The notes beneath the pieces were generated by a model, which made no database searches, was not told the DNA's origin, and saw nothing but the letters and a program-made list of their open reading frames with translations. The translations under genes were made by a program, and so were the position numbers. Below are positions 236 to 9,346 of a DNA stretch of 9,346 bases, piece after piece. Origin of the DNA: a virus (Duplodnaviria > Heunggongvirae > Uroviricota > Caudoviricetes); the IMG/VR virus record IMGVR_UViG_2706794670_000010. The stretch is one strand, 5' to 3'. Position 1 is the first letter of the stretch. Each line of letters starts with the position of its first letter.

Positions 236-613
236 TCAAATCCCCAGTGAAGTCACCATTGTCCTGAGAACTTGCAGAACGTCATGATCATAACTTCCAT
301 CCAAACCGCGACGGCGAATTGCTTCTCGTATTACCGGAAGCAGTTCGCTGGAAATCTCGGTGCATATTTCACCTGATAATACGCTTGGCTCAAGTGAGAA
401 TATTGGTGAACTTACGGTCTTGGTCTCGACAGTTTCAGAGTCAGTGCCAACATTATAAAGCTCAACGAAAGCGGTCTTGATTTTCCGGGCCAGATCTTTT
501 GCTGGCTCGCTTGCAATATCTTTCCCGATTTCTCGCAGCACAGAATGCAATGTATGAGCTGCTGTTTTCTGTACATCAGACGGTAAATCTTTAAATTCCA
601 TCGTCAGCCTCAT
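236..613 (-). CDS. hypothetical protein in the leftward (early-left-like) prophage operon, 121-125 aa
   Basis: Open minus-strand frame from the ORF track. Two candidate starts: ATG at 613 overlapping the upstream stop (TGATG), or ATG at 601 preceded by GAGG with a 6-nt spacer. No recognisable catalytic motif. Confidence 0.5.
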   Translation of the reverse strand: MRLTMEFKDLPSDVQKTAAHTLHSVLREIGKDIASEPAKDLARKIKTAFVELYNVGTDSETVETKTVSSPIFSLEPSVLSGEICTEISSELLPVIREAIRRRGLDGSYDHDVLQVLRTMVTSLGI

Positions 614-765
614 CAGTCAGTGTTTCTGGCTAACCAGCAACGCGCGCCAGATTCGGTTTTAAACGTTTTGCTTTTGGTATACGTCATGGCGGTAAACGTT
701 CCATCCTGGTTAGGGAACACGCCGCACACCAGAGATTCGTTGTTGCCAAGATCGATAGTATCCAT
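613..765 (-). CDS. small hypothetical protein (~50 aa; MDTIDLGNNESLVCGVFPNQDGTFTAMTYTKSKTF...)
   Basis: Internal ATG at 765 is preceded by GAGG (5-nt spacer), whereas the ORF-track start at 819 has no Shine-Dalgarno. The stop overlaps the start of the next leftward gene. Size and position recall the small genes next to the Rac repressor, but I cannot confirm identity. Confidence 0.4.
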   Translation of the reverse strand: MDTIDLGNNESLVCGVFPNQDGTFTAMTYTKSKTFKTESGARCWLARNTD

Positions 766-946
766 GCTGACCTCATTTCCCCTTAACGCCGGGGTGGCGG
801 AACAAAAAACCTGCTGCATAGTTAAAGATTGAACCCTGCCGTCATGTTCTTACGCCTCGGGCTGGCTACTTAACCCCTGACCACTGTCTGGTAACTCGAA
901 GTATTGCCCTGCATTCTGTGGGGCGGGGTGGGTTGACGCCTGAAAC

Positions 947-989
947 AATAGCATCATTATTTTTTTTTGATGTAAATAGCATCGCTATT
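947..989. promoter_or_regulatory. OL-like operator pair: AATAGCATCATTATT (947-961) and the perfect 6-3-6 palindrome AATAGCATCGCTATT (975-989)
   Basis: Read directly from the sequence. The half-site AATAG(C/T) with an ATC spacer is the same as in the palindromes between the divergent repressor and cro-like genes (2085-2125). The pair sits upstream of the leftward operon starting at 765, beyond the terminator of the repressor operon. A matching -10/-35 could not be assigned confidently. Confidence 0.4.
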
Positions 990-1004: not shown

Positions 1005-1029
1005 AAGAAAAAACCACCCTAAGGTGGTT
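1005..1029 (-). terminator. putative intrinsic terminator for the leftward repressor/antitoxin/toxin operon
   Basis: A 7-bp stem AACCACC (1012-1018) / GGTGGTT (1023-1029) with loop CTAA. On the minus-strand transcript the hairpin is followed by UUUUCUU (complement of 1005-1011). It lies 17 bp past the toxin stop at 1046. Confidence 0.45.
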
Positions 1030-1045: not shown

Positions 1046-1336
1046 TTAACTGTTTTTGCCTGGATACTGTCTTCGAGAATGCACAATATTTACTACTTCT
1101 ATGCTTGATGCTGTTACTCGGTAAAGGATGATGTAGTTAGGATGAGTTACAATTTCACGAAGACCAAGAACTCGCTCGCTTGGAGGATACAGGTAAGGAT
1201 GCTCTGTGAGCGGCAAAACGGATGTTTCAATTCGAATTTTCATTCTGCGTGCTGCCGCGGGATTTTCTTTAGCTATGTAGGCTACGATCTGGCGCAAATC
1301 ATCACGAGCAGATGGTAGCCATAAAACGGGTAACAT
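1046..1336 (-). CDS. type II toxin-antitoxin toxin, ParE/RelE superfamily (96 aa)
   Basis: Translation MLPVLWLPSARDDLRQIVAYIAKENPAAARRMKIRIE...IILYRVTASSIEVVNIVHSRRQYP has the ParE/RelE sequence pattern (N-terminal helices, C-terminal YR/VHSRR-type beta region). Its start overlaps the upstream gene's stop as TAATG. Confidence 0.8.
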   Translation of the reverse strand: MLPVLWLPSARDDLRQIVAYIAKENPAAARRMKIRIETSVLPLTEHPYLYPPSERVLGLREIVTHPNYIILYRVTASSIEVVNIVHSRRQYPGKNS

Positions 1337-1530
1337 TATTCACCTCTGTGAGTTGCAGCAGCAATTTGGGCAATAATTTGTTCCATTTCCGCCATTACCT
1401 CATCATGCGGAATCGCCGGGCGGGGATCCGCGAGGCTTGCTGCTACTTTGGCCCGCAGCCATTCGTTGTAACTATTTTCTTGCTCAACTGTCTCAAATTC
1501 TGAAACCATTGGGGAAAGGACTGTACTCAT
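1336..1530 (-). CDS. cognate antitoxin (ParD-like / CC2985-type addiction-module antidote, 64 aa)
   Basis: Small acidic protein (...EWLRAKVAASLADPRPAIPHDEVMAEMEQII...) immediately upstream of, and overlapping, the ParE-like gene. GAGGAG lies about 9 nt upstream of the ATG at 1530. Its start is 19 bp below the repressor stop. Confidence 0.7.
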   Translation of the reverse strand: MSTVLSPMVSEFETVEQENSYNEWLRAKVAASLADPRPAIPHDEVMAEMEQIIAQIAAATHRGE

Positions 1531-1549
1531 TTTACATATCTCCTCTGAT

Positions 1550-2050
1550 TTAGGCGCGACGGCCTTTTTGTGCAGCTAACCACCGCGCAACCGTACGATC
1601 CATTGATTCTTTTTTATCTTTCATCTCCTGAAGCATGTGTTCTTGATCTTCTTTCGGAAAAGCTCTGAACGTATGGATTAAATCTCGTTCCATCGGCTCT
1701 ACGGCAAACGGTAGTTCATCCTCTGTTTGTTCTGTGTCTGCTGGTAATGCGACTATGTTATCTTGCTGTGGTTCTCGACAATACATCCTTGCAATTTGCA
1801 GCAAATCTACCATGTCTGGCCTGATTGACTCAGGGGGAACTTTCAGTAAGCCAGCAAACTTTAGAACAGCCTCAAGGTTTAGTGGGGTTTGACCATTTAG
1901 GTAGTGACTTACCGCCCCTTGTGTTGAAAACCCCATAATTTCCGCCGCACGTTCCTGAGTCAATCCCAACTGAGATTTCTTTGCCATCCAGATTTCTTTC
2001 AGTCTTCTGGCGGCGTTGAGGTCGGTGTCTGACAATGATTTTCTTTTCAT
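1550..2050 (-). CDS. CI-like prophage repressor, Xre-family HTH, no S24 peptidase domain (RacR-like architecture)
   Basis: HTH segment LGLTQERAAEIMGFSTQGAVSHYLNGQ. It is divergent from the cro-like gene with operator palindromes in between. The first ATG is at 2050 (166 aa); the ORF-track start at 2080 is a GTG without a Shine-Dalgarno. The C-terminal region lacks the Ala-Gly/Ser-Lys autocleavage signature. Confidence 0.8.
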   Translation of the reverse strand: MKRKSLSDTDLNAARRLKEIWMAKKSQLGLTQERAAEIMGFSTQGAVSHYLNGQTPLNLEAVLKFAGLLKVPPESIRPDMVDLLQIARMYCREPQQDNIVALPADTEQTEDELPFAVEPMERDLIHTFRAFPKEDQEHMLQEMKDKKESMDRTVARWLAAQKGRRA

Positions 2051-2084
2051 ACATCCAATTCTAATAAGATTGCTAATCACTTTG

Positions 2085-2125
2085 AAATAGTATCACTATT
2101 TACTTTTAAAAATAACAGTGCTATT
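2085..2125. promoter_or_regulatory. OR-like operator region: palindrome AAATAGTATCACTATTT (2085-2101) and related site AATAACAGTGCTATT (2111-2125); candidate rightward promoter -35 TTTACT (2099-2104) and -10 TATTAA (2122-2127)
   Basis: Inverted repeats read directly from the 111-bp interval between the divergent repressor and cro-like genes; centres are 25 bp apart. The promoter hexamers are weak matches with a 17-bp spacer. Confidence 0.45.
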
Positions 2126-2161: not shown

Positions 2162-2425
2162 ATGAATCTTGGAGAATATTTGCATCATTTTCATATAACC
2201 CAGAGTTCATTTGCTGAGATTGTTGGCGCATCCCAAGGGATGGTCAGCCACGTTATAACGGGGCGTGCAAAACTTACAGGAGAAAAAATATTACGTTGGT
2301 GTGAAGCAACGGGATGGGTGGTGACCCCACATGAGATTGACAGTAAAACCTACCCCAACCCAACTGACGGCTTGCCTGCTGAGTTTCAGGCTAACACACA
2401 ACCATCGGCGGGGGTTGATTCATGA
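2162..2425 (+). CDS. Cro-like / YdaS-like HTH regulator (~87 aa)
   Basis: HTH segment SSFAEIVGASQGMVSHVITGRAKLTGEK. It is the first rightward gene opposite the repressor. ATG at 2162 is preferred over the in-frame TTG at 2135. Its stop overlaps the next start as ATGA. Confidence 0.7.
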   Translation: MNLGEYLHHFHITQSSFAEIVGASQGMVSHVITGRAKLTGEKILRWCEATGWVVTPHEIDSKTYPNPTDGLPAEFQANTQPSAGVDS

Positions 2426-2847
2426 AAATCAAGCATGAACACATCCGCATGGCGATGAAAGCCTGGGCGCATCCGGACGGTGAAAAAGTTCCGGCAGCTG
2501 AAATAACCAGGGTTTATTTCGAACTGGGAATGACGTTTCCGGTTCTGCATAACGACAGCAAGCACAACACGCTTTATCTCAACACCCAAAAGATTTTCCG
2601 TTGGCTGGATAAAGACACCCCTGACGCTGTTGAAAAAATTCAGGCGTTGTTACCTGCGATCGAAAGGGCAATGCCACCTCCGCTGGTGGCTCGAATGCGC
2701 AGCCACAGTTCAGCTTATTTTCGGGAACTGGTGGAGACGCATGAACGACTGGTGAGAGACGCTGATGATTTTGTCGCAGTGGCAATCGCCGGTTTCAATC
2801 AGATGAACCGTGGTGGCCCGGCAGGAAATGCTGTGGCAGTACATTGA
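2422..2847 (+). CDS. YdaT-like (CII-analogue) prophage regulator, 141 aa
   Basis: Begins MKIKHEHI..., which I recall as characteristic of the YdaT family of Rac-type prophages. It sits in the cII position and is translationally coupled to the cro-like gene. Confidence 0.65.
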   Translation: MKIKHEHIRMAMKAWAHPDGEKVPAAEITRVYFELGMTFPVLHNDSKHNTLYLNTQKIFRWLDKDTPDAVEKIQALLPAIERAMPPPLVARMRSHSSAYFRELVETHERLVRDADDFVAVAIAGFNQMNRGGPAGNAVAVH

Positions 2848-2918
2848 CTGACAATAGCCATATCGAATCGCTCCCGGCAACTCGTGAGTAAAAAGATTCG
2901 GTATCAGAAGAGGTGAGT

Positions 2919-3593
2919 ATGGCTAACGCCTGGCTCAGATTATGGCATGACATGCCAAATGACCCTAAGTGGCGAACAATTGCCAGGGTGTCAGGGCAGC
3001 CAATTGCAACAGTGATGGCAGTGTATATCCACCTCCTGGNNNNNNNNNNNNNNNNNNNNNNNNNNNNNNNNNNNNNNNNNNNNNNNNNNNNNNNNNNNNN
3101 NNNNNNNNNNNNNNNNNNNNNNNNNNNNNNNNNNNNNNNNNNNNNNNNNNNNNNNNNNNNNNNNNNNNNNNNNNNNNNNNNNNNNNNNNNNNNNNNNNNN
3201 NNNNNNNNNNNNNNNNNNNNNNNNNNNNNNNNNNNNNNNNNNNNNNNNNNNNNNNNNNNNNNNNNNNNNNNNNNNNNNNNNNNNNNNNNACAAAATGGCG
3301 ATTGTCACGGCGCGTCACGAAATGTCACGCACATGTCACGACGAGTCACGACAGATACAGATAAAGATACAGATAAAGAAGATCAAAACACTATGGTCCA
3401 TGGCGTAAAAAACGCCACGAACCAGGCAGGGGATGTTCAGACCGTCAATCCTGGTCAGCCAGCAGGCTCGACACCGGAAGCCGATTCAGCGTATGCGCTG
3501 AAAGCCGATTCGGGCGCTGTGCAGCAGGTGATGACCGCAAGGCCGGAGCAATCACTCCAACTGCAGCAGCCTGAAGCCGATTCCGCCATTCAG
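2919..3593 (+). CDS. phage replication initiator (O-like / replisome organiser), partial: interrupted by masked run 3040-3289 and running into masked run 3594-3859
   Basis: ATG at 2919 is preceded by GAGGTGAG. The N-terminus MANAWLRLWHDMPNDPKWRTIARVSGQPIATVMAVYIHLL is typical of phage replication-initiator N-domains. The frame stays open through the visible stretch 3290-3593, which holds the iterons and a low-complexity linker. The true 3' end is not visible. Confidence 0.6.
3040..3289. other. N-masked run (250 nt), sequence unknown
   Basis: Run of n characters. ORF-track proteins crossing it are X-filled and uninformative. Confidence 1.
3304..3377 (+). repeat. candidate replication-origin iterons inside the initiator gene: GTCACG x5 phased at 10-11 bp (3304, 3314, 3324, 3335, 3345), then 12-bp direct repeat GATACAGATAAA x2 (3354-3365, 3366-3377)
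   Basis: Read directly from the sequence. Helical-period phasing of a short motif followed by an A-rich stretch inside the initiator gene parallels the lambda arrangement, where ori lies within O. The upstream extent is hidden by masking. Confidence 0.55.
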
Positions 3594-3859
3594 NNNNNNN
3601 NNNNNNNNNNNNNNNNNNNNNNNNNNNNNNNNNNNNNNNNNNNNNNNNNNNNNNNNNNNNNNNNNNNNNNNNNNNNNNNNNNNNNNNNNNNNNNNNNNNN
3701 NNNNNNNNNNNNNNNNNNNNNNNNNNNNNNNNNNNNNNNNNNNNNNNNNNNNNNNNNNNNNNNNNNNNNNNNNNNNNNNNNNNNNNNNNNNNNNNNNNNN
3801 NNNNNNNNNNNNNNNNNNNNNNNNNNNNNNNNNNNNNNNNNNNNNNNNNNNNNNNNNNN
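3594..3859. other. N-masked run (266 nt), sequence unknown; hides the end of the initiator gene and/or the start of the helicase-loader gene
   Basis: Run of n characters. Confidence 1.
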
Positions 3860-3898
3860 TGTGAATCATATTTCTGAACCGGATACCGAAATTCCGCC

Positions 3899-3919
3899 NN
3901 NNNNNNNNNNNNNNNNNNN
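3899..3919. other. N-masked run (21 nt)
   Basis: Run of n characters. Confidence 1.
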
Positions 3920-3921
3920 CT

Positions 3922-4386
3922 GACGAACTGATGACCGGGTGCACGAATTTTGTGTTCAGCGGTAAAACCGGCACCGGGAAAAATCACCTTGCAGCGGCGA
4001 TGGGTAACCGGCTGATGGCGAAGGGGCGCAGCGTGATTATCGTCACCGAGTCTGATGTCATGAGCGTGTTGCATGACAGCTACGACAACGGCAAATCCGG
4101 TGAAAAATTTTTACAGGAGCTTTGCGGGGTTGATTTGCTGGTCCTGGATGAAATAGGCATTCAGCGGGAGACGAAAAACGAGCAGGTGGTATTGCACCAG
4201 ATAATTGATCGCCGGACAGCATCACTGTGCAGTGTCGGGATGTTAACAAACCTGAATCATGCCGCAATGAGCACGCTTCTTGGTGAGAGGATTATGGACC
4301 GCATGACCATGAACGGTTGTCGGTGGGTGACGTTTAACTGGGATAGCTGGCGTTCAAATGTCAGCTTTCCGGGAGTTGTGAAGTAA
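3922..4386 (+). CDS. DnaC-like helicase loader (IstB-like AAA+ ATPase), C-terminal ~155 aa visible; 5' part lies in masked sequence
   Basis: Walker A FSGKTGTGKNHLAAA and Walker B LLVLDEIG, and the visible stretch follows my recalled DnaC sequence closely. The frame is open upstream into the N-run, and ATG at 3931 would sit only 10 residues before the Walker A, so the real start is upstream. Stop at 4384-4386. Confidence 0.8.
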   Translation, partial: DELMTGCTNFVFSGKTGTGKNHLAAAMGNRLMAKGRSVIIVTESDVMSVLHDSYDNGKSGEKFLQELCGVDLLVLDEIGIQRETKNEQVVLHQIIDRRTASLCSVGMLTNLNHAAMSTLLGERIMDRMTMNGCRWVTFNWDSWRSNVSFPGVVK

Positions 4387-6199: not shown

Positions 6200-8032
6200 A
6201 TGGCCCGCATGTTTGATACATTAGGATTTTACATTATGAATGTGCAACATTTTGATTTTTTTACAGATAATGAGTTTTCTAATCTGGAAAGATATCAAAC
6301 TTGTAAAGCCATGGCCAAAGGTTATGCGGGCAATTACAAAACCGGGCAGTCAAGGTTGATGCATGCCCGCTCATACTGCTTCAGCATCGTAGCTGCATAT
6401 TGGGATACCCTTGCAAAAAAGCAAAAAAGCAGCATTAAAATGAGGGCAGTACCGCACACTGTTTACATAGAAGACATTCCATGTGATGCACGCGAGCTCG
6501 CTGAACGAACAGGTGAGCTTATTGCTCAATTTCCGGCGGAGGACGCTGGATATCTGATTGGGTCAATTTATACGGTAATGCTGCCATCCGCTTACCGTTC
6601 GGAATTGGGGGCTTACTATACCCCCCCACCTTTGGTAGCGCGTCTCTTGGACCTGGCTGAAAAGTCTGGTGTTGATTTTTCTCATGCATCGGTTATTGAT
6701 CCTGCGTGTGGTGGCGGTGCATTTTTGGCACCAGTAGCCATTCGAATGTTAAAAAAAGACAAGGGGTCTTCCCCTGAATGGATGTTGAGGAGAATCAGTC
6801 GTCGTTTAAAGGGGATAGAGATCGATCCATTTGCGGCTTGGATGAGTTTGGTATTGCTCGAATCTGTACTAATGCCACTATGTGTAAAGGTAAAACGTAG
6901 ATTGCCTGAAGATACAATTATTGTTGCTGATGCGCTTCAGCAAGATAAATTTTCTGGTTATGATCTTGTGGTAGGGAATCCGCCTTACGGACGTGTCACT
7001 CTCGATATTAAAACGAGAGAAAAATATTCTCGTTCGTTATTTGGTCATGCAAATCTATATGGATTGTTCACCGACTTAGCTGTTCGCATGGTTAAAGAGA
7101 AAACAGGAGTTATTGCATTTCTTACGCCAACTTCTTTTCTTGGTGGGCAGTATTTCACCGCGCTGCGAACCCTTTTGACCGAAAAAACTACTCCGTATGC
7201 CCTTGATTTCGTCACTGACAGGGATGGGGTCTTTGACGATGTTCTCCAGGAAACAATGTTGACAGCATTCAAGGCGGGAGAACATAAAGTTCGGGCCCAG
7301 GTATCCTCACTTGTCCCTAAGGGGTTGAACAAAGCAAAAATTGAGAAAATAGGTAATGTTGATATAGAAAAAGGTGGAGCAACGTGGCTTTTGCCACGCG
7401 TTAAAGATGATGCCTGTTTTCTTAATGTATTAAAACAGATGTCTACGCGTTTAGCTGATCTGGGATACTCAGTCTCTACAGGTCAGTTAGTCTGGAATCG
7501 ATTTAAGTCGCAGTTGCGTACGACGAAAGGAAAAAATAGCTACCCATTAGTCTGGGCGGAATCAATAACTTCAGCTGGTTTTCGTTTTAGTGCAGACAGA
7601 AAAAATCATGTTCCCTATATCGATATAACCCCACAACAGGGTTTCCTTGTGACAAAATCTGAATGTGTGCTTGTTCAGCGGACAACATCGAAGGAACAGG
7701 ACAGAAGGATTTTAGCGGCAATTTTACCTCAGGGATTTATAGATGAAACTGGTGGCGTAGTAGTTGAAAACCATATTAATATTGTATATTCAAACGGATT
7801 GTTCTCTGCGGTTCGCCCTGATGTTATTGATATGCTACTTAATTCGCATGTTGTCGATCGGGCGTTCAGGTGTATAAGCGGAAGTGTTGCTGTTTCGGCC
7901 TATGAATTGAATTCAATCCCGTTGCCTTCTCTGGAGCAGGTGATGGAGATTCAATCGTTAATTGATGCTGGCGTCCACAGACGGATTATTGAGAGAACTA
8001 TCGCTGGTTTCTATGGAGTGATGATTGCATGA
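6200..8032 (+). CDS. gamma-class N6-adenine DNA methyltransferase (Type II R-M modification subunit), 598-610 aa
   Basis: Motif order YYTPPP (motif X), then DPACGGGAFL (motif I, AdoMet binding), then VVGNPPYG (motif IV, NPPY), then a long C-terminal target-recognition region. Start is ambiguous: ATG at 6200 or 6209, or ATG at 6236 with AGGA 9 nt upstream. Stop TGA at 8030-8032 overlaps the next ATG. Confidence 0.85.
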   Translation: MARMFDTLGFYIMNVQHFDFFTDNEFSNLERYQTCKAMAKGYAGNYKTGQSRLMHARSYCFSIVAAYWDTLAKKQKSSIKMRAVPHTVYIEDIPCDARELAERTGELIAQFPAEDAGYLIGSIYTVMLPSAYRSELGAYYTPPPLVARLLDLAEKSGVDFSHASVIDPACGGGAFLAPVAIRMLKKDKGSSPEWMLRRISRRLKGIEIDPFAAWMSLVLLESVLMPLCVKVKRRLPEDTIIVADALQQDKFSGYDLVVGNPPYGRVTLDIKTREKYSRSLFGHANLYGLFTDLAVRMVKEKTGVIAFLTPTSFLGGQYFTALRTLLTEKTTPYALDFVTDRDGVFDDVLQETMLTAFKAGEHKVRAQVSSLVPKGLNKAKIEKIGNVDIEKGGATWLLPRVKDDACFLNVLKQMSTRLADLGYSVSTGQLVWNRFKSQLRTTKGKNSYPLVWAESITSAGFRFSADRKNHVPYIDITPQQGFLVTKSECVLVQRTTSKEQDRRILAAILPQGFIDETGGVVVENHINIVYSNGLFSAVRPDVIDMLLNSHVVDRAFRCISGSVAVSAYELNSIPLPSLEQVMEIQSLIDAGVHRRIIERTIAGFYGVMIA

Positions 8033-9111
8033 ATCTGCCTGTTGTTCCCCCATTGAATGTTATCCGGGAAAGATTACAATTAATTTTCCCTGAAGGGACT
8101 GAGAATCGTGGATATTTAATTCGGGAAATAGCTGCAAAAACAATTTTTGTCATGTTTTATGCTGGTGCGGTTGAGGGGCTGGGGCGATGGATAAGGCCCA
8201 GCCAGGTTGTAAGTATGGGAGATTCGCAGGCTGCTCTTACTGATGATGCGTCCAGAGAAAGCTGGGTAAAGATGACTTTCTCTAAACAAAAGATAAGGCC
8301 TGCTGATGCATGGTATGCGGAAAATACGCGTGAGCCAATACGTGATGAAACTATAAAAAATGGCCTAATACCTTGCAATGCAATTGTTGAGCGTAAAGGT
8401 ATACCCACCACATCCTCTCGTCCTCGTTACAGTTTGAATCGCTCTTTTGCAGCACTCTTTGATGCCGGGCTTGAAGGAGATTCGCTGCTGAGTGCAATAA
8501 GTTCCTGGCAAGAAAATCATTTGAACAAAGCCGCTCTTGCTAGGTTGCGTTTATTGAAATCAGGGGCAGTGATTGCTGCTGATGCCGTAGTCGTCACTTT
8601 CCCAAATGGAGAGAAGAGAACTTTAGCTCCGGGCCCGTCAAGTACAATAGCTAAGGCCGTCATCGAAGTTTTTGCTCCTAATTTTCTTAAGAATCCAACT
8701 GTGCTCTGGTTGTCTGAATCCGGGAATAAAGTTGTTGCTCAGGATGATGTATTGGCAAAAGCATTGGGGCTGAATATTGATGCCTCAAAAGCACTTCCAG
8801 ATATTATTTTGATTGATTTGGGAGAGGACCGAACGGGTTCGGACATGCTTGTAGTTTTCACTGAAGTAGTTGCGACAGATGGGCCTATAAACAGGGAACG
8901 AAAAGTTACTCTCACTCATTTGGCTATTGACGCTGGGTTCAGCGAGAAAAATCTTGCATTCCTTACGGCATTTATGGACAGAAGTGCTCTGCCTTTTAAA
9001 AAGGCAATACCAGAATTGGCGTGGGGATCTTATGCATGGTTTGCTTCTGAACCGGAGCACTTAATTGATCTTCGGGATGGTTATCCGGTAAAGATCAGCC
9101 AGAGAAAATGA
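8029..9111 (+). CDS. putative Type II restriction endonuclease partner of the methyltransferase (possibly BsuBI/PstI-like; family unverified), 360 aa
   Basis: ATGA start/stop overlap with the methyltransferase and GGAG 10 nt upstream indicate translational coupling. Same AT-richer composition as the methyltransferase. I could not locate an unambiguous PD-(D/E)xK motif by eye, so nuclease identity is inferred from context. Confidence 0.55.
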   Translation: MNLPVVPPLNVIRERLQLIFPEGTENRGYLIREIAAKTIFVMFYAGAVEGLGRWIRPSQVVSMGDSQAALTDDASRESWVKMTFSKQKIRPADAWYAENTREPIRDETIKNGLIPCNAIVERKGIPTTSSRPRYSLNRSFAALFDAGLEGDSLLSAISSWQENHLNKAALARLRLLKSGAVIAADAVVVTFPNGEKRTLAPGPSSTIAKAVIEVFAPNFLKNPTVLWLSESGNKVVAQDDVLAKALGLNIDASKALPDIILIDLGEDRTGSDMLVVFTEVVATDGPINRERKVTLTHLAIDAGFSEKNLAFLTAFMDRSALPFKKAIPELAWGSYAWFASEPEHLIDLRDGYPVKISQRK

Positions 9112-9263
9112 CCAAAGTTTGATATCCGCCACGCCCTGAAGGATGGGGGTTTTACGGTGCACTGGATAAAAAATCGGTTTCATAGATTTGCCCACCGTGG
9201 TATACGCCTGCGATAAAAACTTTATTGTCATCAACGGCAAAAGCAATAATTGTTCTGTGGCGG

Positions 9264-9346
9264 GGTGATGCTGCCAACTTACTGATTTAGTGTATGATGG
9301 TGTTTTTGAGGTGCTCCAGTGGCTTCTGTTTCTATCAGCTGTCCCT
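9264..9346 (+). mobile_element. IS1 insertion sequence, left (5') end; element continues right of the window
   Basis: GGTGATGCTGCCAACTTACTGATTTAGTGTATGATGGTGTTTTTGAGGTGCTCCAGTGGCTTCTGTTTCTATCAGCTGTCCCT matches the IS1 left terminal repeat and insA leader as I recall them. Same orientation as the IS1 end at 1-103. Confidence 0.85.
9319..9346 (+). CDS. insA: IS1 InsA, N-terminal fragment (GTG start; continues beyond window)
   Basis: GTG GCT TCT GTT TCT ATC AGC TGT CCC translates to (M)ASVSISCP, the InsA N-terminus. Confidence 0.7.

Follow-up and report, generated by a model that had tools for sequence, protein, structure and literature searches.

The operon downstream of the prophage repressor in the window, by which is meant the whole stretch of 9,346 nucleotides that was analysed (IMG/VR virus record IMGVR_UViG_2706794670_000010, Caudoviricetes), is best explained as a three-component type II toxin-antitoxin (TA) system of the paaR-paaA-parE kind. 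It would form part of the immunity region of an Escherichia/Shigella prophage of the lambdoid (Rac/Qin/CP-933-like) type and work there as an addiction module, a reading to which a probability of about 85% is given. The operon belongs to a known and experimentally studied family, and the interpretation offered for it in an earlier note on this DNA is already in print. What appears to be new in the window relative to the published systems is a repressor head resembling that of lambda CI, together with predicted operators of its own.

Three-component paaR-paaA-parE systems were defined in prophages of O157:H7 (Hallez et al. 2010, as cited in PMC8630535). In CP-933P, the immunity region contains the paaR2-paaA2-parE2 system, and regulation is exerted there by PaaR2 and not by PaaA2 (Jurenas et al. 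2021, PMC8630535). PaaR2 is a CI analogue that is translated from a leaderless mRNA, as demonstrated for paaR2 by 5' RACE, and the divergent genes ydaS and ydaT encode the analogues of Cro and CII (PMC8630535). The CP-933P operon is flanked by OR and OL operators and a PL promoter, with YdaT activating a PRE-type promoter (PMC8630535). PaaR2 has been described as having no sequence similarity to CI, and it is devoid of an S24 domain (PMC8630535). According to PMC8630535, which cites Hallez et al. (2010), the locus is bistable and stabilises a mini-F plasmid in a ClpAP/ClpXP-dependent manner, and ParE2 induces the SOS response. Activity of ParE2 was not seen in either state of the switch (PMC8630535). 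In this literature, paaA2-parE2 “replaces rexA and rexB”, its role being that of an addiction module.

Table 1. Features of the immunity region, with positions in the window and the basis of each assignment.
Feature	Position	Strand	Basis
ydfA (DUF1391), first gene of the leftward PL-side operon beyond OL	613-819	-	Pfam DUF1391 (3.3e-28)
OL-like predicted operator pair, AATAG-N5-CTATT	947-961 and 975-989		enrichment, conserved half-sites
Intrinsic terminator, t_imm analogue, at the operon end	1005-1029	-	fold energy, stem conservation in the O145 locus
ParE-family toxin (ParE1/ParE2-like), 96 aa	1046-1336	-	Pfam, PDB, identity to the CP-933M-type toxin
PaaA-family antitoxin, 64 aa	1336-1530	-	Pfam PaaA2, NCBIfam NF050103, PDB 3zbe
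Immunity repressor, 166 aa, lambda-CI-NTD-like head and PaaR/DicA-type tail	1550-2050	-	HTH_3, CI N-terminal domain, PaaR tails
PRM-like promoter, TTCAAA-17-TAGAAT	2058-2086	-	consensus match only (promoter scan)
OR-like predicted operators	2063-2077 (weak, 2 mismatches), 2086-2100, 2111-2125		enrichment, conserved half-sites
ydaS, Cro-like HTH gene, divergent from the repressor	2162-2425	+	HTH_3 (4.9e-4), position, RefSeq ortholog annotation
YdaT operator OM TTGATTCATGAAAATCAA, located where ydaS meets ydaT; marks the PRE analogue	2415-2432		exact TTGATT-N6-AATCAA
ydaT, CII analogue	2422-2847	+	Pfam YdaT_toxin (5e-9)

Inspection of the sequence and its open reading frames gives the minus-strand order repressor, antitoxin, toxin and hairpin with U-tract (Table 1), that is, a regulator, an antitoxin and a toxin on one strand with short or overlapping junctions. 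The junctions described in the earlier note are found at the coordinates it gave: the repressor stop TAA (1552-1550) is separated from the antitoxin start at 1530 by a 19-nt gap, which contains the SD-like sequence GAGGAG, and the antitoxin stop and the toxin start share the TAATG at 1338-1334. The promoter and terminator scan found neither a promoter-like nor a terminator-like site in the 19-nt gap, and no terminator-like site on the minus strand within the operon. The hairpin with which the note had ended the operon was confirmed by folding: the stem-loop at 1012-1029 and the U-tract reaching to 1005 give -15.1 kcal/mol (z = -3.0), and one of 200 shuffled sequences folds as well. It is absent from the output of the simple terminator scan, probably because the best fold pairs part of the U-tract into the stem. 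In the O145 locus the stem is kept and the sequences flanking it diverge. The TA pair lies directly downstream of the repressor and upstream of the terminator and OL, so that its placement in a slot equivalent to that of rexAB holds. The genes ydfA-ydfB-ydfC-dicB are annotated in two of the compared loci (L001 and L004), and the five-gene layout, with regulator, antitoxin and toxin divergent from ydaS and ydaT, is common to L001-L005.

On its profile and structure matches, the toxin is a ParE protein. It matches Pfam ParE_toxin over its full length (1.8e-17; 64 bits with a cut-off of 23), and its residues 1-93 match the crystallised ParE2 of E. coli O157 (PDB 5cw7_B, 6.7e-37). It is also 82% identical to the CP-933M-type toxin of O157:H7, which is of the ParE1 type and comes from a PaaR1-type locus (L003); homology therefore extends to both ParE1 and ParE2. 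The antitoxin is, on the same kind of evidence, of the PaaA type and not of the ParD type. PaaA2 (PF21217) is its sole Pfam match above the curated cut-off (3e-23; 81.9 bits with a cut-off of 27), and this match is limited to the 33-residue PaaA2 toxin-binding motif. The NCBIfam model NF050103 (3.3e-27), a 45-residue model named “RelB family”, covers the same motif. PaaA2 chains are the only solved relatives found (PDB 3zbe, 1.4e-23). The antitoxin of the window has an identity of 77% to the PaaA1-type antitoxin of L003 and of 66% to PaaA2.

The earlier note had called the two genes a ParE/ParD-type pair and had proposed profile searches of both proteins. The ParE half of this assignment stands on the Pfam match given above, while the ParD half gives way to PaaA: no match to ParD, RHH, Phd or any other DNA-binding domain was obtained for the antitoxin at E <= 0.1 in Pfam and NCBIfam. 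An assignment of the antitoxin to ParD or RelB was rejected, as its profile matches are restricted to PaaA2 and NF050103 and no DNA-binding domain was found. In canonical parDE systems (RK2, Caulobacter, Vibrio cholerae ParD2-ParE2) a ParE-fold toxin is neutralised by a small wrapping protein, as would be the case here. However, canonical ParD carries an RHH domain and autoregulates its operon, whereas the antitoxin of the window is devoid of such a domain and regulation would be left to the prophage repressor. As the antitoxin is of the PaaA type and has no DNA-binding domain, the system is to be read as a three-component paaR-paaA-parE system in which the repressor is the TA regulator.

The repressor combines parts of two known types of regulator. 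Its open reading frame reaches the GTG at 2080, which is the first in-frame start and the limit given in the earlier note, but the likely start is the ATG at 2050; this gives the 166-aa protein (MKRKSL...), RefSeq annotates orthologs at that length, and the promoter geometry agrees. The protein is 100% identical to a protein of Shigella sonnei. It matches Pfam HTH_3 (9e-9), and its residues 2-90 match the N-terminal domain of lambda CI (2.5e-9 by phmmer, 39% identity by BLASTP). The tail matches that of PaaR1 (56% over 64 aa, 6e-23) and that of PaaR2 (52% over 44 aa, 5e-15), carries the conserved PaaR sequence (...AFPxEDQ...ARWLAAQKxRRA) and has a weak match to the C-terminus of DicA. The heads of PaaR1 and PaaR2, on the other hand, do not align with the head of the window repressor, the alignment being restricted to the C-terminal tail, and PaaR2 itself was not returned by a protein search with the repressor. 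The heads of PaaR1 and PaaR2 are likewise dissimilar to one another, so membership of the family does not depend on the head. Orthology of the window repressor to PaaR2 was accepted for its tail, but for its head it was rejected.

An S24 (LexA-like) peptidase domain was not matched in the repressor by Pfam or NCBIfam, and its C-terminal part is a PaaR/DicA-type tail of 45-65 residues. The protein therefore has the N-terminal domain of a lambda CI-type repressor without the S24 autocleavage domain and overall falls outside that class. The absence of an S24 domain suggests that cleavage triggered by RecA is probably absent as well.

Candidate operators for this repressor can be recognised on both sides of the operon. 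The motif AATAG-N5-CTATT, with at most one mismatch, was found four times with 0.24 copies expected, and none of 200 shuffled sequences reached four. Two of these strong copies lie just past the terminator and two between the repressor and ydaS; the two-mismatch copy at 2063-2077 is a possible third OR site. Measured from the ATG at 2050, the OR centres lie at -20, -43 and -68; loci L006 and L008 show the same geometry. With the weak copy counted, this arrangement of three OR sites spaced by about 23-25 bp, one of them centred near -43 of the PRM-like promoter, resembles the layout of OR3, OR2 and OR1 relative to PRM in lambda. In the 82%-identical O145 locus the operator half-sites are kept, and the central 5 bp and the flanks are changed. 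The OL half-sites are conserved in L001, L002 and L004, and equivalent pairs are located downstream of the cargo in L006 and L008. All compared loci with this CI-like head (L001, L002, L004, L006 and L008) carry the motif at both OR and OL, and it is missing from the loci of PaaR1 (L003) and PaaR2 (phage Evi, L005). This shows that the operators are linked to the repressor head.

In the PRM-like promoter, the -10 element has its end 7 nt ahead of the start codon at 2050, a spacing compatible with a leaderless repressor mRNA such as those of cI and paaR2; promoter consensus matches occur at chance frequency for the region (3 found, 2.9 expected). Elements of the -10 and -35 type for PR and PL were placed by eye and are ambiguous. 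On the rightward side, the ydaS reading frame extends upstream to the TTG at 2135, and its product is only 26-29% identical to YdaS of the RAE1 and RAE2 loci. YdaT is 81-87% identical to YdaT of the CP-933M-type and CP-933P-type loci. Footprinting of the YdaT protein has shown it to occupy TTGATT-N6-AATCAA where ydaS ends (Prolic-Kalinsek et al. 2023, PMC9986795). An exact copy of this box spans the ydaS stop and the ydaT start of the window, where about 0.001 exact chance matches would be expected, and the box is found at the equivalent ydaS/ydaT junction in L002, L003 and L005. The window thus holds a lambdoid immunity region with a divergent ydaS-ydaT pair and a YdaT operator at the junction of the two genes.

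To place the window among the published systems, two reference loci were used: phage Evi (L005), which was found by tblastn with the crystallised ParE2 sequence and represents the PaaR2 type, and the O157:H7 TR01 locus L003, a second copy that represents the PaaR1 type. The ParE2 of Evi agrees with this query at 100% identity over 92 of its 93 residues, and the Evi repressor starts with MQKKE, the published N-terminus of PaaR2. With paaR2-paaA2-parE2 (RAE2, CP-933P/Sp12 of O157:H7) the window shares the gene order, the style of the junctions and the bracketing by OR and OL. The likeness extends to the toxin (ParE2 match at 7e-37), the antitoxin (66% to PaaA2), the repressor tail (52% over 44 aa), YdaT (87%) and an identical YdaT box at the ydaS/ydaT junction, and the promoter geometry also fits a leaderless repressor mRNA. 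By contrast, the two repressor heads show no relationship, YdaS reaches an identity of only 26%, and the operators are of the AATAG-N5-CTATT type, whereas 18-bp palindromes of the GTTTAGTAA type have been published for CP-933P. At the DNA level, homology to the Evi RAE2 locus is discontinuous in the TA genes and lacking from 1616 to 2410. The repressor head, the operators and ydaS all fall into this gap; therefore, the immunity specificity differs from that of RAE2.

The closest TA pair is that of paaR1-paaA1-parE1 (RAE1, CP-933M/Sp4, L003), with identities of 82% for the toxin, 77% for the antitoxin and 56% over 64 aa for the repressor tail. The flanks on the ydfA side and on the ydaT side are also alike, while the AATAG-N5-CTATT sites are missing in L003. 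DNA homology to this locus is continuous from 622 to 1677, from ydfA through the TA genes into the repressor tail. From 1678 to 2350, a stretch with the repressor head, the operators between the genes and the greater part of ydaS, it is absent, and it returns at 2351-2845 with the end of ydaS and ydaT. The pattern of homology is that of heteroimmune cassette exchange, which makes the window a third immunity type on a common chassis. Among complete E. coli genomes, the best one matches at 96.6% over 900-2900 and most others at about 82%. A megablast of the whole window against phage records returned mosaic pieces with a coverage of at most 22%, none of them with the TA genes at high identity.

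In lambda, the rexA-rexB cargo is expressed in lysogens from the repressor operon. Both in the lambda cI-rexA-rexB region and in the window, the repressor is followed by the cargo and a terminator, all of them located between OR and OL. The window repressor has a head homologous to the CI N-terminal domain (39%) but a short PaaR/DicA-type tail in place of a C-terminal part with an S24 domain, and the cargo is unrelated to RexA and RexB. The CII analogue also differs, being YdaT, a protein of a different fold (PMC9986795).

A model for the operon can be drawn by analogy with the homologous O157:H7 system. Repressor, PaaA and ParE would be expressed from one leftward transcript that runs from the PRM-like promoter to the hairpin at 1005-1029 and is probably leaderless, starting at the ATG at 2050. 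Because the antitoxin has no DNA-binding domain, it would be the prophage switch that sets transcription: the repressor and the Cro-like YdaS would compete for the AATAG-N5-CTATT sites at OR, with a second pair of sites at OL. The CII-like YdaT, acting at the 2415-2432 box, could drive an alternative leftward transcript of the PRE type. PaaA would bind ParE and neutralise it. On loss or silencing of the region, the antitoxin, being labile, would decay and ParE, a nucleoid-associated and SOS-inducing toxin, would kill or arrest the cell; replacement of the region would lead to antitoxin decay and poisoning by ParE in the same manner. In this way, the prophage immunity region would be stabilised by addiction to the TA pair, with the toxicity of ParE, the lability of PaaA and addiction itself all expected by the same analogy. 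Regulatory details such as activation and cooperativity may deviate from those published, as neither PaaR1 nor PaaR2 has a head related to that of the window repressor.

A rather unlikely alternative, but the best of those considered, is that the pair is an anti-phage system expressed in lysogens, equivalent to RexAB in abortive infection or exclusion, in which infection by a second phage would free ParE. This would fit the location, as the pair fills the slot between cI and OL that is occupied by rexAB in lambda (PMC9986795). Sibling prophages with the same head and operators also carry cargo in this slot that matches PADLOC models, namely a HigB/HTH pair in L006 (PD-Lambda-2 A/B, 1e-14) and HipA_2/DUF3037 in L008 (PDC-M66A/B, 2e-13 and 5e-19). 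Of these, PD-Lambda-2 has been described as a defence system and PDC-M66 counts as a candidate, and a PstI-type restriction-modification system is present in the same prophage as the operon. However, toxin, antitoxin and repressor are all without a PADLOC match, and homology to RexA or RexB is lacking, with the pair belonging to the ParE and PaaA families and being analogous by position alone. A literature search found no report of phage defence by PaaA-ParE, and the published phenotype is one of addiction and stabilisation (PMC8630535). A role in defence would, in any case, be compatible with a role in addiction.

Less probable by a clear distance is that the operon is in decay and no longer functional, left over in a cryptic prophage. 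The best-studied homologs do reside in defective prophages, ParE2 activity was undetected at steady state (PMC8630535), and the window spans just 9.3 kb, too short a piece for judging the integrity of the prophage. Against decay, the five genes are intact and of full length when compared with profiles and structures, and the operators, the terminator and the YdaT box are conserved. Homologs of the TA genes are present in 842 of 5,426 complete E. coli genomes, and an identical ParE2 is found in the deposited phage genome Evi. An ordinary two-component ParD-ParE system, autoregulated by its antitoxin and merely adjoining an unrelated repressor gene, is the least probable reading and is largely refuted: it would account for the ParE toxin, the NCBI name “RelB family” and the SD-like GAGGAG before the antitoxin, but not for an antitoxin reduced to the PaaA2 motif without an RHH, ParD or Phd DNA-binding domain, a 19-nt gap without promoter-like or terminator-like sites, DNA homology to RAE1 that passes unbroken over the boundary between the TA genes and the repressor tail (622-1677), and the control of the homolog by PaaR2 and not PaaA2 (PMC8630535).

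For the paaR-paaA-parE reading, the chief value of the analysis is correct annotation, with little beyond that. In public records the proteins are named “RelB family antitoxin”, “RelE/ParE family toxin”, “helix-turn-helix domain-containing protein” and “toxin YdaT family protein”; for YdaT, the case has been made in print that it is a regulator and not a toxin. These names hide what would be a prophage immunity switch carrying an addiction module. A wider reading, which is doubtful, is that the slot between the repressor and OL is an exchangeable defence hot-spot, co-expressed with the repressor, in lambdoid prophages with a CI-like head and AATAG-N5-CTATT operators. The slot contains PaaA-ParE in the window, PD-Lambda-2-like HigBA in Salmonella and PDC-M66-like HipA_2/DUF3037 elsewhere, and on this reading PaaA-ParE would provide both RexAB-like abortive infection and addiction in lysogens. 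The variant described here forms a direct sequence link between PaaR-type repressors and lambda CI, and its operators are cleanly predictable. One repressor and operator chassis with at least three different toxin-type cargos at the rexAB position also offers a convenient natural series for testing the defence of lysogens against phage.

The same slot downstream of the repressor can be followed into two sibling prophages that share the window-type repressor head and operators. The repressor of the Salmonella locus L006 is 154 aa long; its head shares 47% identity with that of the window repressor, its tail is different, and the operator layout is as in the window, with three sites in OR and two in OL. 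Downstream of this repressor, a toxin resembling HigB and an HTH protein give matches to PD-Lambda-2 A/B in PADLOC; the cargo differs between L006 and the window while the slot is identical. In the second sibling, L008, the repressor joins the window-type lambda-CI-like head to a second, PaaR1-like HTH head and a PaaR tail, an arrangement shared with proteins P0013-P0023, and this domain make-up marks them as tandem-HTH, “two-headed” PaaR variants. Here, HipA_2 and DUF3037 (PADLOC PDC-M66A/B) follow the two-headed repressor in place of PaaA-ParE.

Features of the window and related loci, with coordinates
Feature	Location	Strand	Remarks
Repressor and cargo	L006 4001-5339		Salmonella enterica subsp. 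diarizonae contig
Tandem-HTH repressor	L008 4001-4735; also P0013-P0023		240-255 aa
YdaT box	L001 9513-9530		single mismatch
YdaT box	L004 10370-10387		single mismatch
R-M gene pair	window 6200-9111	+	PADLOC and Pfam profiles
ORF fragment (...RTIIAFAVDDNKVFIAGVYHGGQIYETDF...)	window 9152-9277	-	short; preceded by in-frame stops
N runs (masked sequence)	window 3040-3289, 3594-3859, 3899-3919
Promoter-like site TTGACT-17-AATTAT	window 1935-1963	-	9/12 match; within repressor gene

The YdaT box, the operator at the ydaS/ydaT junction, is altered to AAAACCAA and GTGATT in the closest E. coli loci, L001 and L004, whereas the exact palindrome is kept in the window and in the more distant L002, L003 and L005.

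Elsewhere in the window, a 610-aa Eco57I/N6-adenine type II methyltransferase (PADLOC MTase_II, 1.8e-300) is encoded by a gene whose stop overlaps the gene for a 360-aa restriction endonuclease of the BsuBI/PstI family (Pfam, 9e-45; PADLOC REase_II, 2.8e-128). The pair forms a complete PstI-type R-M system, a moron downstream of the DUF1627/DUF977 genes; no restriction enzyme is annotated among the genes of the retrieved stretches of L001 and L004. The short fragment at the right end of the window might be the remnant of a RelE/ParE-type toxin, and the related locus L001 has, farther to the right in its prophage, a distinct ParD/ParE pair. The O-like replication gene (2913-3923) and the DnaC/IstB-like ATPase region are only partly readable because N runs interrupt the former and the sequence immediately upstream of the ATPase ORF (3931-4386).

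The promoter-like site inside the repressor gene belongs to a region in which the count of such sites, this one included, is at chance level. If real, it could drive basal transcription of the toxin-antitoxin genes independently of the repressor, which would fit the published finding that paaA2-parE2 is transcribed in both states of the switch.
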